The notes below the pieces were generated by a model that made no database searches, had not been told where the DNA came from, and worked only from the letters and a program-made list of their open reading frames with translations. A stretch of DNA of 41,897 bases from a virus (Duplodnaviria; Heunggongvirae; Uroviricota; Caudoviricetes), in IMG/VR virus record IMGVR_UViG_651053023_000011, positions 1-41,897 of that record. One strand, given 5' to 3'. The position numbers and the translations under genes are program-made. Every line of letters begins with the position of its first letter. The stretch's first letter is position 1. Below, one piece after another: positions 6,907 through 28,769 of this stretch.

Positions 6907-7960
6907 CAGAAATCCTCCTCAACATTTTTTTCTTCCTGCCGGTAACAGGCTCGGGGAGATAAGCATCTGCCGGGCCAACCCGTAATTCAGTCGTCGTGCC
7001 CCGGTCGTCCTGGTTATAGGTGACTTCTGCGATCACCAGTTCATCATTATCAAAATTATTCAGCGGGTCGAAAACGATGACAGATAACCCCGGACGCCAT
7101 AACGCGCCACTGCCCTGCCGCCAGCCCTGAACCGTATATGTTGTCTCACGGGTAAGCGCAGCCCGTTGACGCGCTTCAAATTCACAACGGGCCTTACAGG
7201 TTGCTGTCGTTGCTGTGCCTGACTGCTGAATCAACAAAGGGCGATAACGGGTCACACCACTGTCCTGAATGGTCTGACGTATTGCGGCAATGGTGGCCTC
7301 ACCAAAATCATCATCGTTGCCCGGGCGCTGCCCACTGACCTGATATTCAGAAAACCGCTCTCTGATGCTTCTTTCCGTATCACAGGAAAGAATATTCTCT
7401 CCCAGCACCAGTGCTGTCGCCGCTTTGCCTGTTCCGGTTTTCCCCAGAACCAGTCGACCGCATTCATCGTCATAAGCCAGCGTCTGAACCTGCCCCAGCA
7501 ACCGGTTAAGACAATCGGCAACGGTTTCGCCGTGTTCCGGCTGGGCATCAATCACCGCTGTCTGCGGCACACCGGCGTCAACAACGGTGATGCCAAATGG
7601 CGCAGCCAGTTCACTGACGATTCTGAGCAGGTTTTTTCCGCTCTGCTGGACTGGCAAAGCAGAGCAGTCAACCAGATCGGCTGTTTTGCTTCGCCCGACA
7701 ATTCCCATGCTGACGCTGCTGGCGTCATAACGAAGCGGTAGAGCCTCCACATATCCGGTGAGCACGGGCTCATCCCCGATAAGCACTTCAACCAGCTCAC
7801 CATTTTTTATCCGGGGCTGATAATCCCGGCTTCCGGGCCAGCGGGTGGTAATGGCAACATTAAAATCCCGGGCAATACGGTTAATGCCCGCACTGATTCG
7901 GACGGATGTCCAGCCGCCCCATTCGCGACCAGAAACCCGAAGTAAAACGGTATTATTCAT
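6785..7960 (-). CDS. baseplate hub protein, Mu gp44 (P)-like / late control D family
   Basis: 391-aa ORF; its last ~40 codons overrun the gp45-like start; one extra base in the T7 run (~6925-6931) would end it exactly at the gp45 start. Confidence 0.7.
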   Translation of the reverse strand: MNNTVLLRVSGREWGGWTSVRISAGINRIARDFNVAITTRWPGSRDYQPRIKNGELVEVLIGDEPVLTGYVEALPLRYDASSVSMGIVGRSKTADLVDCSALPVQQSGKNLLRIVSELAAPFGITVVDAGVPQTAVIDAQPEHGETVADCLNRLLGQVQTLAYDDECGRLVLGKTGTGKAATALVLGENILSCDTERSIRERFSEYQVSGQRPGNDDDFGEATIAAIRQTIQDSGVTRYRPLLIQQSGTATTATCKARCEFEARQRAALTRETTYTVQGWRQGSGALWRPGLSVIVFDPLNNFDNDELVIAEVTYNQDDRGTTTELRVGPADAYLPEPVTGRKKKMLRRISDERVFSSQSDFPGCHHGGGFSQKVSVCRVENDSRRSETTR

Positions 7961-9348
7961 CTGACGGGTACCCTTAATGCCCTGATCGGAACAAAGCCCG
8001 GATGGGAGATGGCATTTCGATCCAGGATATCAGTTTCACGGGACGCATCGTCGTACCATGACGCAGCCAGAACAAGCGCAGGAAGAACCTCCGCTGGCGT
8101 TCGCTCTGCGGTCTCCTCCGTCTGAACCAGACGGGCCTGAATATCCCGGTTCAGTTCTGTACGTAATGACGTCAGCTGAAAAAACAGCCTGTCATCCGCC
8201 GCACGCCTGAGCTCCTGTTCAATCGCCGCGTTCAGCGATTCGCGTATGATGGTGAGATTTTCCCGCGTGGGTGGTTGCGCGGTCTCATCCTGCTCTGTGC
8301 TGGCTGCCACGCTGTCAAGCGCCGGATGAGAAACATGAATGATATCGGACTGACGTTCAGTGGAACCACCAACAGCCACAACCGCCTGCTGATTTTTCAC
8401 CAGACTTCCGGGTTGCGGCAGTGAAGTGACCGCCCTTGCAGCCTCGCTGATTGCCGTCGTCCGGATGACTGCAGCCACCAGATTTGTCTGCTGTTTTTGC
8501 CTGACAACCGATGCGGAATCTGTGGGCCACACAGCACGCGGTGCCAGTCCTGGATCCAGCGTAATACCTGACATTGTCGTTATGGACTGCACCAGATCCT
8601 GTGTGTTACCCACCAGTCTGGTTCCTGCCCGCCAGGTATCCTGCAACGTATGCACAAAATCACTGGCAACCGACGGCGGCATCAGAATGACGGATAAATC
8701 GCCCTGCAGTAGTCTCGCTCCGGCAGAAACAGCCGAATTAACCATTTTGAAAGCTGTCTGAACGGTTCCCAGCATATCGGTTGCCCGGGCAATAACATCG
8801 TTCTGAATAAAGTCCGATATTCCCGCGAGATCAAAATCGCCGAACATGTCTTCAATCAGCTCATCCAGGAATCCGGACGACTCCTCCAGTTTTCTGGCGG
8901 TTGCGGCTCCGGCGACCGGGAATGACAGTTCCCCGCTCTCAACAAACTGAAATGAAACCCGGCACATACGGCCTTCCGTGCTGGAATGAGAAACGGTCAC
9001 CTGTCCGTCAATACAACCCTGCATTTCACCGAACTGCGGATGGATCAGTGTCCCCGGCCCGGCGGTTTCAATCGCGGTAATCAGCCTGTCGCGCTGCTCT
9101 GCGTAATCATCACCAACGAGATACGCATTAATCGTCAGCCGTCGCGTGGCACGCCCGAGATCTTCCGTGTACGGTTTGTCACGGTTTGGGTATTCATGGA
9201 CCTGAACGCGGCGTCCGAACGAACCCTCGTCGCTTTCCACCGAAAACGGAACGCCACGAAATGAAGCATCGTAAAGATTATCGCGCCAATTGATACCTGA
9301 AGATGCAGAAAGGAGTGAAGAAAGAGAAGGTAAAGAAGGTAAGTCCAT
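7957..9348 (-). CDS. DNA circularization protein N-like (Mu gp43-like)
   Basis: 463-aa ORF between tape measure and baseplate hub genes; N-like sequence. Confidence 0.65.
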   Translation of the reverse strand: MDLPSLPSLSSLLSASSGINWRDNLYDASFRGVPFSVESDEGSFGRRVQVHEYPNRDKPYTEDLGRATRRLTINAYLVGDDYAEQRDRLITAIETAGPGTLIHPQFGEMQGCIDGQVTVSHSSTEGRMCRVSFQFVESGELSFPVAGAATARKLEESSGFLDELIEDMFGDFDLAGISDFIQNDVIARATDMLGTVQTAFKMVNSAVSAGARLLQGDLSVILMPPSVASDFVHTLQDTWRAGTRLVGNTQDLVQSITTMSGITLDPGLAPRAVWPTDSASVVRQKQQTNLVAAVIRTTAISEAARAVTSLPQPGSLVKNQQAVVAVGGSTERQSDIIHVSHPALDSVAASTEQDETAQPPTRENLTIIRESLNAAIEQELRRAADDRLFFQLTSLRTELNRDIQARLVQTEETAERTPAEVLPALVLAASWYDDASRETDILDRNAISHPGFVPIRALRVPVR

Positions 9349-9361
9349 ACTGTCTCCACTA

Positions 9362-9386
9362 TAAAAAAACCGCCAATTTCTGGCGG
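9362..9386 (-). terminator. rho-independent terminator after secreted-protein gene
   Basis: Dyad CCGCCA/TGGCGG with 5-nt loop followed on the minus strand by a T7 run. Confidence 0.5.
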
Positions 9387-9394
9387 CTTATATA

Positions 9395-9877
9395 TTAATC
9401 ATCACTAATATCTTTCATATTCAATTTGCAATTTTCGTAGGTCACTCCAGACTCGCCATTAACATTAACTCCAGCTCTGATATTCCCGTTTTCTTTTACA
9501 TCTACAAAAAACTGGCCTCTTGGCATCTTGAACACAAATGTAAAACCAACGGTATCTGAATCAAAATCATCATCTTTATATATTGGGATCAGATGTGTCA
9601 TCGTCGCTGGTGATGCATTGTTTGCAAAATCAAATACACCTATACTTTTGCCGAATTCATAAGAAGCTTTTCTCAATATAATCGCACCGCTGGCAGAAGG
9701 GGATGGGCACGATATCCTCAGTTGTCTGAATCCATCTGTATCCAAGTCAACATCATTATATGCAGATGCTTTAACGTTATTAACAAATCGTGAAGCAATC
9801 TCCGCATTTGTTAGTGTTTTCGCCTGAGCACAGCAAGAGGTTAATATTGCAACTGTCATTAAAAATGGCTTTATCAC
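9395..9877 (-). CDS. secreted protein of unknown function (moron in tail operon)
   Basis: 160-aa ORF with N-terminal signal peptide (MIKPFLMTVAILTSCCAQA/K); GTG start with GGAG upstream; visibly AT-rich relative to flanks; own terminator. Confidence 0.6.
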   Translation of the reverse strand: MIKPFLMTVAILTSCCAQAKTLTNAEIASRFVNNVKASAYNDVDLDTDGFRQLRISCPSPSASGAIILRKASYEFGKSIGVFDFANNASPATMTHLIPIYKDDDFDSDTVGFTFVFKMPRGQFFVDVKENGNIRAGVNVNGESGVTYENCKLNMKDISDD

Positions 9878-9944
9878 AAAACAAACTCCATTGTTAGCAT
9901 GTTACGCGATAATTTTGCCTCATCTCTCACCACAAAAAAAGAAT

Positions 9945-11894
9945 TCACCTTTTAAATGGAGAATACCCAACGTCATGGGTGATTTTCATAAAGGGATCGC
10001 CTGTTTTCGGCAAATCGATGACACGCATTCCCGGCGGCGCGTTGTCAAACGTCACCTTAAGTTCGCTGCGGGTTGCCGGTGACGATGAAAGGCTTAACAG
10101 TTGATTCCTTTCCAGTGATACATTCGGGATGTAGCGTTTATCTGGAGATAAATACCCATCACCACGTGGCATCTGCCATCCGGTCATGTCATAGACAAAA
10201 TCATGGAACTGTTTGCCCCACTCGTCGAACTTATCATTCAGACCAAATCCACTATTCAGTGCATCAGCCACAAAATTTTTAACAAGCCAGGGATGTTCTT
10301 TTTCAAACTCCTGCGCCATCATGCCCAGTTCAAGCAATCCACCAATCAGACTGATCTTACCAAGCCCCTTTAATTTCAGCGCCGTTTTTCCTGCCGCCGT
10401 TGTCCATTGATTCTGGGCGACTGTTGCTGCACGAATGGCTGCCACCGCTTTCACACCAATATACAGGGCAGAAACCGTTGCTATTGTTTTTACTGCCTGT
10501 TCCCATCCCCCCATTGCCCTGACAACCTGATCAACCTCCTGCCAGACTTTTTTCACAACCGGCCCGACCGTTTCCCAGTTGTCAATAATGAGATACGCCC
10601 CCGCTACCAGTAACGTAATGAGTCCCTTTGCCGGTGTCATATTCATCACGCTACCCATGATTTTTGTTATGCGTGTCAATGTGCCAATCGCCACGCCCAT
10701 CGTCAGTAATGCCGCACCAGTTTTCGCGATGGTTTTTACGACATCAGGATTTTCTCTGACAAACGTGCGCACTTCTTCCAGAAAAGGCTTCATCTCTTTT
10801 ATGCCTTCATTGATTGAAGGCAGGAAGGTTTCCCCCAACGTGGAAGAAATCGCATTGATCTGGTTCTGCAGCAGCAACAACTGATTTTCCGTCGTCGCGG
10901 CACGGGCGGCATATTCTTTCTGCATTGAGCCGCCATACTGCTGCGCATCCGCCACACGATTAAAATTGGTTCGCAACAAATCCAGATTCGTGAGCAGCGG
11001 CGCAATGGCTCCCAGAGACTCCTTCCCGAACAGCGCATTAAGCACAGCAGCCTGTTTTTCTTTCGGCACTTTCGCCAGAGAATCCAGTACGTGCAGCATG
11101 GCCCCACGGGCGTCTTTCTGCATATCCGCCGCCAGTTTTTTCGGGTCAATGCGCAACAGGCGAAGCGCTTTTTTCTGCGATTTGGTGGCAGAATTCCCCG
11201 CTGTCAGCGACAGCATAAAATTCTTTATCCCCGTCGCTGCAATTTCTGATTCCACCCCCATTCCGGCAATGGTTGCCCCCATTGCGGCAATCTCTCCGGA
11301 GGCCACACCCGCAACACTGCCTAAAGGGCCAATACGGGTCACAACATCAGAAATCTTTTTCGCACTTGCAGGACCAGTATTGCCAAGATAGTTAATCTTG
11401 TCCGCAAGTCCTGCCACTTCTCCCTGTGTCAGCTTAAAGGCTGTGCGCCACTGTGCCATCATCTGACCGGATTCTTCCGCCGTGGTGTCAAAGGCCACCC
11501 CCATCTTCACGGCGTCGTCAGTAAACTGCATCAGCTCGTCACGGGCGATGCCAGCCTGACCACCCGCCGCCACGATTTCGGCGATACCTTCCGCCGACAT
11601 GGGCAGTTCTGTTGACAGGTCGCGCACCTGTTCCGTCATTGCCTTAAACGCTTCCGGCGTATCCAGACCATCCACCACTTTCCGGACATCCGCCATTTTT
11701 GATTCAAGGGCAATGGCAGATTTGACCGGGAGCGCCAGCGCCCCCAGTACTGCGGTTCCGGCACCCGCTGCGCCCAGAGACAGGCTGGCAAACTCCTTTT
11801 TAAAGCCTTTCAGCTGGCGCTGCATCCCCTTCAGCGGTGCCGACACCTTATCCACGGCAGTGATGATCGCCTTCAGCTGAAAACTGTCAGCCAT
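9945..11894 (-). CDS. tail tape measure protein
   Basis: 649-aa ORF, Ala/Gly-rich with predicted coiled regions, downstream of chaperone pair. Confidence 0.85.
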   Translation of the reverse strand: MADSFQLKAIITAVDKVSAPLKGMQRQLKGFKKEFASLSLGAAGAGTAVLGALALPVKSAIALESKMADVRKVVDGLDTPEAFKAMTEQVRDLSTELPMSAEGIAEIVAAGGQAGIARDELMQFTDDAVKMGVAFDTTAEESGQMMAQWRTAFKLTQGEVAGLADKINYLGNTGPASAKKISDVVTRIGPLGSVAGVASGEIAAMGATIAGMGVESEIAATGIKNFMLSLTAGNSATKSQKKALRLLRIDPKKLAADMQKDARGAMLHVLDSLAKVPKEKQAAVLNALFGKESLGAIAPLLTNLDLLRTNFNRVADAQQYGGSMQKEYAARAATTENQLLLLQNQINAISSTLGETFLPSINEGIKEMKPFLEEVRTFVRENPDVVKTIAKTGAALLTMGVAIGTLTRITKIMGSVMNMTPAKGLITLLVAGAYLIIDNWETVGPVVKKVWQEVDQVVRAMGGWEQAVKTIATVSALYIGVKAVAAIRAATVAQNQWTTAAGKTALKLKGLGKISLIGGLLELGMMAQEFEKEHPWLVKNFVADALNSGFGLNDKFDEWGKQFHDFVYDMTGWQMPRGDGYLSPDKRYIPNVSLERNQLLSLSSSPATRSELKVTFDNAPPGMRVIDLPKTGDPFMKITHDVGYSPFKR

Positions 11895-25516: not shown

Positions 25517-25591
<75 letters not shown>

Positions 25592-25594
25592 ATA

Positions 25595-25670
<76 letters not shown>

Positions 25671-27686: not shown

Positions 27687-28769
27687 ATGAAAAAATTAAC
27701 AGTGGCAATCTCTGCTGTAGCAGCATCAGTATTGATGGCTATGTCCGCTCAGGCAGCTGAGATTTATAACAAAGACAGCAATAAATTAGATCTGTACGGA
27801 AAAGTTAATGCCGGGCACTACTTCTCCTCTAACGATAAACACGATGGTGACAAAACTTATGCTCGTCTGGGATTCAAAGGTGAAACCCAAATCAATGATC
27901 AACTGACTGGTTTCGGTCAGTGGGAATATGAATTCAAAGGCAACCGTGCTGAATCTCAAGGTTCCTCCGCAGACAAAACTCGTCTTGCATTTGCTGGTCT
28001 GAAATTCGGCGACTACGGCTCCATCGATTATGGTCGTAACTACGGTGTAGCATACGATATCGGTGCATGGACTAACGTTCTGCCAGAATTCGGTGGCGAT
28101 ACCTGGACCCAAACAGATGTATTCATGACTGAACGCACCACAGGTGTTGCAACTTATCGTAACAACGACTTCTTTGGTCTGGTTGAAGGTCTGAATTTTG
28201 CTGCTCAGTATCAGGGTAAAAATGACCACACTGACGTAACTCAAGCTAATGGTGATGGTTTCGGTTTCTCCACTACTTATGAGTATGAAGGATTCGGCGT
28301 AGGTGCAACCTATGCTAAATCTGACCGCACTAATAATAAGGTTATCTACGGTAACAACAGCCTGAATGCATCTGGTCAAAATGCTGAAGTATGGGCAGCT
28401 GGTCTGAAATATGACGCTAACAACATTTACTTGGCCACTACCTATTCTGAAACCCAGAATATGACGGTATTTGCTGATCGCTTCGTCGCTAATAAAGCTC
28501 AGAACGTTGAGGCTGTTGCACAATATCAGTTCGATTTTGGGCTGCGTCCGTCCGTGGCTTACCTGCAATCTAAAGGTAAAGATCTCGGAGTATGGGGCGC
28601 TCAAGACTTAGTTAAATATGTTGATGTAGGCGCAACCTATTACTTCAACAAAAATATGTCCACTTTTGTTGACTACAAAATCAACCTGATTGATAAGAGC
28701 GATTTCACGAAAGCATCTGGCGTTGCTACCGATGATATCGTTGCTGTAGGTATGGTTTACCAGTTCTAA
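27687..28769 (+). CDS. outer membrane general porin (OmpC/NmpC/Lc-like), prophage-encoded
   Basis: 360-aa ORF with AAGGA RBS, signal peptide ending AQA, N-terminal [17 protein letters not shown]-terminal ...YQF. Confidence 0.9.

Follow-up and report, generated by a model that had tools for sequence, protein, structure and literature searches.

The 41,897-nucleotide stretch of viral DNA analysed here (“the window”; IMG/VR record IMGVR_UViG_651053023_000011) is a phiP27-like lambdoid prophage of E. coli, whose two halves share 76% and 63% with phiP27 at 94–96% identity. On its minus strand, between the gene for the tail tape measure protein (TMP) and gene N, lies an open reading frame (ORF) that is likely an optional, AT-rich cargo gene encoding an exported barrel protein. 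An earlier reading of the same DNA from its letters alone (the first-pass annotation) had placed a 160-aa ORF between the tape measure gene and the DNA circularization gene, a position borne out by the matches of the two flanking genes to PF10145 and PF07157. It had also pointed to a GTG start preceded by GGAG, which agrees with our reading of the sequence: the GTG occupies 9877..9875, the putative ribosome-binding GGAG is found 8 nt 5′ of it, and no in-frame ATG occurs further upstream before a stop is reached. The low GC content that had set the ORF apart was likewise confirmed, with a GC of 0.375 and a GC at third codon positions (GC3) of 0.298 against 0.51–0.55 in N, TMP, P, sheath and tube, and the composition of the ORF falls within the lowest 1.7% among all 483-nt windows.

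The comparison of related tail operons, which had been proposed as a check, showed that the gene is optional rather than conserved in all related tail modules. In phiP27, which is an infectious and inducible phage, only 15 nt separate the TMP stop from the start of N, and homology to the window ends at 9352 and is picked up again at 9955, leaving 602 nt here against 21 nt there; up to these breakpoints gene N has 95.6% identity to phiP27, and TMP, which closes the series of structural genes ahead of the cargo slot, shares 97% identity with phiP27 L47. Extra DNA between genes that are adjacent in relatives, together with a deviant composition, is among the criteria by which morons are recognised (PMC3594210), and both are seen in this 602-nt segment and its ORF. 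The junction was present in 49 complete E. coli genomes, 10 of which carry the gene, while about 37 gave two-piece matches with a span 581 nt shorter, i.e., empty sites; overall, about 38 of the 49 are counted as empty between identical flanks. In about 1000 genomes a related N directly follows a TMP gene with no cargo gene between them. Viral contigs were surveyed via their relatedness through N, and for the 75 in which both flanking genes could be located the TMP-to-N gap was bimodal, measuring 15–72 nt in 60 contigs and 525–627 nt in 14, all 14 of the latter matching the hidden Markov model of the family. One further contig of this survey held a copy split by IS1, with a gap of 1373 nt, and another had a gap of 561 nt holding an unrelated gene.

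The gene recurs at this place well beyond the immediate relatives of the window. At least six tail-module lineages have diverged homologues (30–76% identity) at the TMP|N junction, namely E. coli clade A, to which the window belongs, Yersinia (76% identity), E. coli clade B (47%), E. coli clade C (43%), a very common Salmonella clade (about 39%, with one member indexed in 13,507 collection blocks), and the L103-type loci; in a further lineage (L041:2387-3423) the slot after TMP holds the gene for a 195-aa HIRAN-domain protein and then a family member at 30% identity. Phage vB_EcoM-720R4 and 100 E. coli genomes carry the clade B homologue at this junction, and clade B flanks without the gene occur in some E. 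coli genomes (H115–H118). In every tail-module lineage the GC of the cargo gene is 0.34–0.39, against 0.42–0.58 in the flanks. Three distant homologues (25–31% identity) were located outside tail modules, on phage-plasmid-like contigs (L005:2919-3413, L006:1-452 and L042:740-1270), where they stand by IncFII repA, parA, MazEF or Gp49/HTH toxin–antitoxin pairs and a cI-like repressor; their place beside plasmid-maintenance genes points to mobility between contexts.

One close relative, L049, carries different cargo. Its flanks are 94–98% identical to the window (N 98%, TMP 94%), and L049:1920-2375, in the slot, is the gene for an unrelated, 151-aa predicted lipoprotein (MKKALIILSCLFCLAGC...) with the lipobox LAGC and a GC of 0.36, which gave no Pfam or PHROG match and was not found in any of the 5,426 complete E. 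coli genomes searched. According to blastn, only 9391..9954 of the window differs between the two, and homology resumes exactly at the terminator, at window position 9390. Since a close relative has an unrelated lipoprotein gene at the very same site, the site is best described as a cargo slot, and the recurrence of the family together with the L049 allele argues, from sequence comparison, for an exchangeable cargo position and not a structural gene. By the same comparison the slot recurs at the end of the sheath–tube–tape measure block of P27/Mu-type contractile tails, just 5′ of the terminator that precedes N.

Other rearrangements were noted around this junction. IS1 interrupts the cargo gene in a clade A copy, after about codon 34, and in a clade B copy of strain PEC122; the IS1-interrupted copies are L012:4230-5000 (on the same contig as L055) and hit H111 (NZ_CM168021.1). 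A defective relative, L003 (NZ_CP068155.1 284680-292232), has lost the stretch running from the major capsid gene to N, and its capsid gene now adjoins N.

The terminator at the junction

Between the cargo gene and gene N there is an intrinsic terminator, with a minus-strand stem at 9389..9367 and a U run at 9369..9363. Its hairpin has a predicted energy of −16.1 kcal/mol (z = −3.7), and none of 200 shuffled sequences folds as well. An Rfam scan of 9200..10100 returned only sub-threshold matches, which were driven by this terminator. A hairpin with a U-tract also stands just before N at the filled sites of five lineages, with differing stem sequences, and most empty TMP|N sites have one as well. 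At a set of empty sites (L065, L068, L091, L102, L105, L110, L117, L119 and the APEC O1 type) the whole spacer of 32–72 nt consists of hairpin, U-tract and Shine–Dalgarno sequence; coordinates of such empty-site spacers are L065:4481-4516, L068:4455-4489, L105:4456-4495, L110:4447-4483, L119:4464-4501 and L037:3910-3971. Filled and empty Salmonella alleles have the same terminator in common, the terminator of L049 is homologous to that of the window, and only the phiP27-type and clade-B-type empty sites are without one. The terminator would therefore be native to the junction and not to the gene, and the comparison indicates that it splits the tail operon at TMP|N even in modules that carry no cargo. 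Attenuation of the baseplate genes and insulation in the lysogen are possibilities for its role.

Two statements of the first-pass annotation have to be modified in this light. It had credited the gene with its own terminator, and a strong terminator does follow the gene, but as a feature of the junction that is present at most empty sites and in L049. It had also described the gene as inserted, which stands in the sense that the gene is an optional, compositionally foreign addition that phiP27 and most relatives do not have. Because the terminator looks ancestral to the junction, however, the empty site of phiP27 type may have arisen by joint deletion of gene and terminator rather than being ancestral.

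The exported protein and its family

The cleavable signal peptide that had been proposed is well supported by pattern. The cargo protein begins with MIK, followed by an uncharged stretch of 16 residues and by AQA|K, and in 12 of 12 family members the three parts are kept: a positive n-region, an uncharged core of 14–21 residues, and small residues at −3 and −1 at one and the same alignment column, which is usually followed by Lys, while the signal sequences themselves differ among the members. The protein thus probably has a Sec signal peptide that is cleaved after AQA. A lipobox-like LTSC (Cys15) is found here and LISC in the Yersinia homologue, in both cases overlapping the signal peptidase I site, whereas in the other clades the signal region is without cysteine; given this overlap, lipidation may be possible for the window's clade, at Cys15, and for the Yersinia protein. 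Two other cysteines, Cys57 and Cys150 in precursor numbering, are invariant across the family, which suggests a periplasmic disulfide between them.

An AlphaFold2 model of the mature protein, built with a 15-sequence alignment, has a pLDDT of 85.4 and a pTM of 0.80 and consists of an N-terminal helix followed by eight β-strands; it replaced an earlier model made with eight close sequences and with the signal peptide included, which had reached a pLDDT of 49. The best structure-match figures for the mature model were those of MoaF-like barrels (8.6 and 8.5), followed by Pallilysin (7.2), avidins (about 6.8), PliC (6.6 and 6.4), PhiA (6.4), a type VI secretion system (T6SS) immunity protein (6.0) and MliC (5.8). 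Foldseek against the PDB and BFVD gave nothing at E < 0.001, and a sequence-profile search of the PDB gave chance matches only (E > 0.1).

The protein belongs to PHROG 5586 (phrog_5586, function unknown), which it matches over its full length, residues 1–160 aligning with profile positions 1–161 at E = 1.3e-85; the group, which is thus the gene's own family, comes with no functional annotation. The family has the conserved motifs CPxPSASG, DDFxSD and FKMPxGQFFV and is represented by 20 sequences among 1.8 billion proteins, the named members all being from Enterobacterales. The exact cargo protein occurs on 82 contigs in public collections under the names “hypothetical protein” or “Phage protein”. 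A profile search of genome contigs with a closer family alignment found only two loci, a tblastn search of 50,697 phage records with three family members yielded vB_EcoM-720R4 only, and tblastn of family member P0020 against plasmids gave one weak match.

Within clade A the dN/dS of the cargo gene ranges from 0.26 to 0.71, except for one pair at 1.67 that rests on 7 substitutions, as against 0.06–0.21 for TMP and N in the same genome pairs; the values for the cargo gene are 3–6 times higher, with small substitution counts throughout. The gene is constrained yet evolves faster than its neighbours, which fits an accessory gene under weaker constraint as well as an interaction under conflict.

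The late operon and other features of the prophage

The coordinates of the cargo gene and of the features around it are collected in the table below. The antiterminator gene Q is at 28958..29341 on the same strand as the cargo gene, and Q is followed downstream by the head, tail and cargo genes, all oriented as it is, which places the ORF within the Q-dependent late operon; since it shares the orientation of that operon, it should be transcribed at least during lytic growth. In lambdoid phages the antiterminated polymerase is expected to read through a terminator such as the one at 9363..9389.

Table. The cargo gene, its parts and its surroundings at the TMP|N junction of the window
Feature	Position	Strand	Remarks
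Cargo ORF, including stop codon	9395..9877	−	160 aa, GC 0.375
Tail tape measure gene (TMP), 649 aa	9945..11894	−	PF10145 6e-44, phrog_28; upstream neighbour
Gene N, DNA-circularisation / baseplate hub, Mu N-type, 463 aa	7957..9348	−	PF07157 3e-36, phrog_184; downstream neighbour
AT-rich leader of the cargo gene, 67 nt	9878..9944	−	contains Shine–Dalgarno GGAG 9889..9886
Predicted signal peptide, residues 1–19, MIKPFLMTVAILTSCCAQA	9821..9877	−	signal peptidase I site AQA|K predicted
Mature exported protein, 141 aa (predicted)	9398..9820	−	predicted N-terminal helix and eight-stranded up-and-down β-barrel
Intrinsic terminator, GC-rich hairpin and U7	9363..9389	−	between cargo gene and gene N
Spacer with gene N Shine–Dalgarno GGAG (9357..9354)	9349..9362	−	from the sequence
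Segment of 602 nt here, 21 nt in phiP27	9353..9954	−	blastn breakpoints

The prophage contains a second cargo gene at 27687–28769 on the plus strand, which encodes a Gram-negative porin of 360 aa (PF00267, 3e-149) sharing about 94% identity with the porins called “OmpD” in other temperate phages of E. coli. The stretch around it, between Q and a DNA methylase gene, is AT-rich, and the porin gene is on the strand opposite to the late genes; in the corresponding part of its genome phiP27 carries stx2e. Two tRNA genes, tRNA-Gly(UCC) and tRNA-Thr(UGU), stand side by side at 25517–25670 on the minus strand, downstream of the Q/methylase region.

The homopolymer at 6925–6931 is A7 in the window, whereas phiP27 and the closest E. 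coli genome have A8. Through this difference of one nucleotide the 3′ end of the baseplate hub gene P is read in another frame, and the product has 391 aa instead of 351 aa, a 46-aa tail, which overlaps the gp45 gene, taking the place of the last 6 residues; the A7 run is either a sequencing error or an inactivating mutation.

Expression and possible roles

Moron-like cargo genes in tail operons are a well-known kind of gene, while the protein family encoded here is uncharacterised; a literature search found no paper on the cargo gene, and the “moron” of the SfIV paper is at a different locus. In lambda, bor and lom are optional AT-rich genes of the late region that specify exported envelope proteins, and the cargo gene is like them an optional, AT-rich late-region gene of a lambdoid prophage with a predicted envelope-directed, exported product. 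It differs from both, Bor being a lipoprotein and Lom belonging to the outer-membrane barrels of Ail/OmpX type, whereas the cargo protein is without any Pfam match; lom is mentioned in PMC3594210. The same source, summarising Cumby et al. 2012, describes the HK97 gp15 moron, which acts in superinfection exclusion and whose gene adjoins the tape measure gene. The two genes have in common that each is a compositionally deviant extra gene in a lambdoid tail operon, directly by TMP, with an envelope-directed product, and that related phages lack the gene at the same position. They differ in that gp15, a member of the YebO family, is a small protein of the inner membrane whose gene has a promoter of its own and demonstrated expression from the prophage, whereas the cargo protein is predicted to be a soluble or lipid-anchored β-barrel of 141 aa, bears no sequence relation to gp15, and has a leader in which no promoter was found.

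Superinfection exclusion can be named, by analogy and tentatively, as the single most likely role of the cargo protein, although the chance that it is the right one must be put clearly below even. The mature protein would be a periplasmic binder or inhibitor: the barrel would intercept a component of an incoming related phage as it crosses the periplasm, such as the C-terminus of the tape measure, N or the spike, or would alternatively mask an envelope component that the phage needs. In this proposed mode it would resemble HK97 gp15 and also TP-J34 Ltp and T4 Spackle. The latter two are extracytoplasmic proteins, secreted or held by a lipid anchor, that bind the tape measure or the tail-tip lysozyme of the incoming phage; both are helical, as opposed to the predicted β-barrel of the cargo protein, and neither is homologous to it. 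A bolder and rather doubtful extension of the same idea is that PHROG 5586 constitutes a new class of periplasmic superinfection-exclusion proteins travelling with P27/Mu-type tail modules, in which the small disulfide-bonded barrel would capture the tape measure C-terminus, N or the spike of a phage with a related tail, and that TMP|N is a dedicated exchange slot for envelope defence, of which the L049 lipoprotein would be another example.

Several observations weigh against exclusion by a moron of this kind. The property that matters most in a moron is that it is expressed independently in the lysogen (PMC3594210), and a sigma-70 consensus scan of the 67-nt leader at 9878..9944 found no site at threshold. 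A hexamer scan of the leaders of all clades gave weak pairs only, which are not conserved between clades, the best of them matching 3 + 4 of 12 positions; the block GGCAAAATT is common to the leaders of the window and of the Yersinia homologue. In the Salmonella homologue the leader from the TMP stop to the start codon is only 16 nt long. Since no promoter was found and the Salmonella leader is so short, independent expression in the lysogen, which exclusion at the level of the population would require, is unproven. The terminator, moreover, is no evidence for an independent transcription unit, the homologues on plasmid-like contigs mean that the function does not have to depend on this type of tail, and scans of 15 family members with Pfam, NCBIfam and PADLOC were without meaningful match, none of the 15 matching PADLOC-DB at E ≤ 1. 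The hallmarks for which the first-pass annotation had called the gene a moron therefore hold in part: it is optional and AT-rich and its product is predicted to be exported, but the terminator is native to the site and no promoter reached the threshold.

An alternative is a late-operon passenger without independent expression, a gene transcribed during lytic growth only, as the last cistron of the sheath–tube–tape measure transcript, whose product would act in the periplasm of the dying cell, for instance by keeping progeny phages from injecting into debris or cells already infected, or by altering the envelope ahead of lysis. Strand and operon are shared with the Q-dependent late genes, the leader scans yielded no consensus promoter, only 16 nt precede the ORF in the Salmonella clade, and the junction-native terminator that follows the gene puts it at the 3′ end of an existing unit. 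Against this, the persistent AT-richness is typical of lysogen-expressed cargo, the replacement by an unrelated lipoprotein and the homologues beside plasmid-maintenance genes fit the pattern of genes expressed in lysogens, and the AT-rich leaders of clades A, B and C, which are 64–71 nt long, leave room for promoters that are weak or depart from the consensus; on balance such a passenger is possible but somewhat unlikely. A periplasmic inhibitor of peptidoglycan hydrolases, similar to PliC/MliC or PhiA and shielding the lysogen from host lysozyme, T6SS amidases and muramidases or phage tail lysins, is a less probable candidate still. PliC, MliC and PhiA appear among the structure matches, but they rank below generic barrels (MoaF-like barrels, avidins and designed barrels), no sequence or profile similarity connects them with the cargo protein, and the latter has an extra N-terminal helix. 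The MliC Pfam profile matches none of the 15 members even at E ≤ 10, the sequence-profile search of the PDB at E ≤ 10 recovers neither PliC nor MliC, and to our knowledge the three conserved motifs of the family are not those of PliC/MliC. Membership in PliC/MliC was rejected on the lack of a profile match and on the ranking of the structure matches.

That the ORF is a decaying or functionless remnant is very improbable. Its purifying selection is weaker than that of the flanks, with one pairwise dN/dS above 1 on very few substitutions, and it is frequently lost, but every copy examined that is free of IS has kept its frame, conservation of the family, with invariant cysteines and motifs, reaches down to 25–30% identity, the structure is predicted with confidence, and the gene is very common in Salmonella. 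A chance ORF was considered and rejected. The least credible reading is that of a structural or assembly component of this tail module. That the gene keeps its place in at least six diverged tail-module lineages might speak for it, but about 80% of the related modules are without the gene, as is phiP27, its predicted Sec signal peptide is at odds with the cytoplasmic assembly of tails, copies disrupted by IS1 persist, and its dN/dS is above that of its structural neighbours. A structural tail gene was rejected on the grounds that the gene is missing from most relatives and that a signal peptide is present. For the same reasons, export, absence from phiP27 and persistence of IS1-disrupted copies, the cargo protein is unlikely to be part of the virion, and the suggestion in the first-pass annotation that it might be virion-associated is not supported; the exclusion or virulence factor that the annotation also suggested is a matter of inference.

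As an optional, AT-rich cargo gene the ORF is a solid but ordinary candidate for functional screening, and should its protein prove to have no phenotype, it would be one more hypothetical moron. What the present analysis adds to the earlier annotation is the conserved terminator of the junction and the alternative cargo. The family is common, being found in at least 110 of the 5,426 complete E. coli genomes and in Shigella, Yersinia, Pantoea and very many Salmonella assemblies. Filled, empty and alternative-cargo alleles with identical flanks, together with a phage that has the gene (vB_EcoM-720R4) and one that does not (phiP27), make up a ready experimental system, and the conserved terminator at TMP|N is a small, testable point on the organisation of tail operons. 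Beyond this locus, envelope-directed cargo genes of prophages are a rich source of phage-exclusion and virulence functions.

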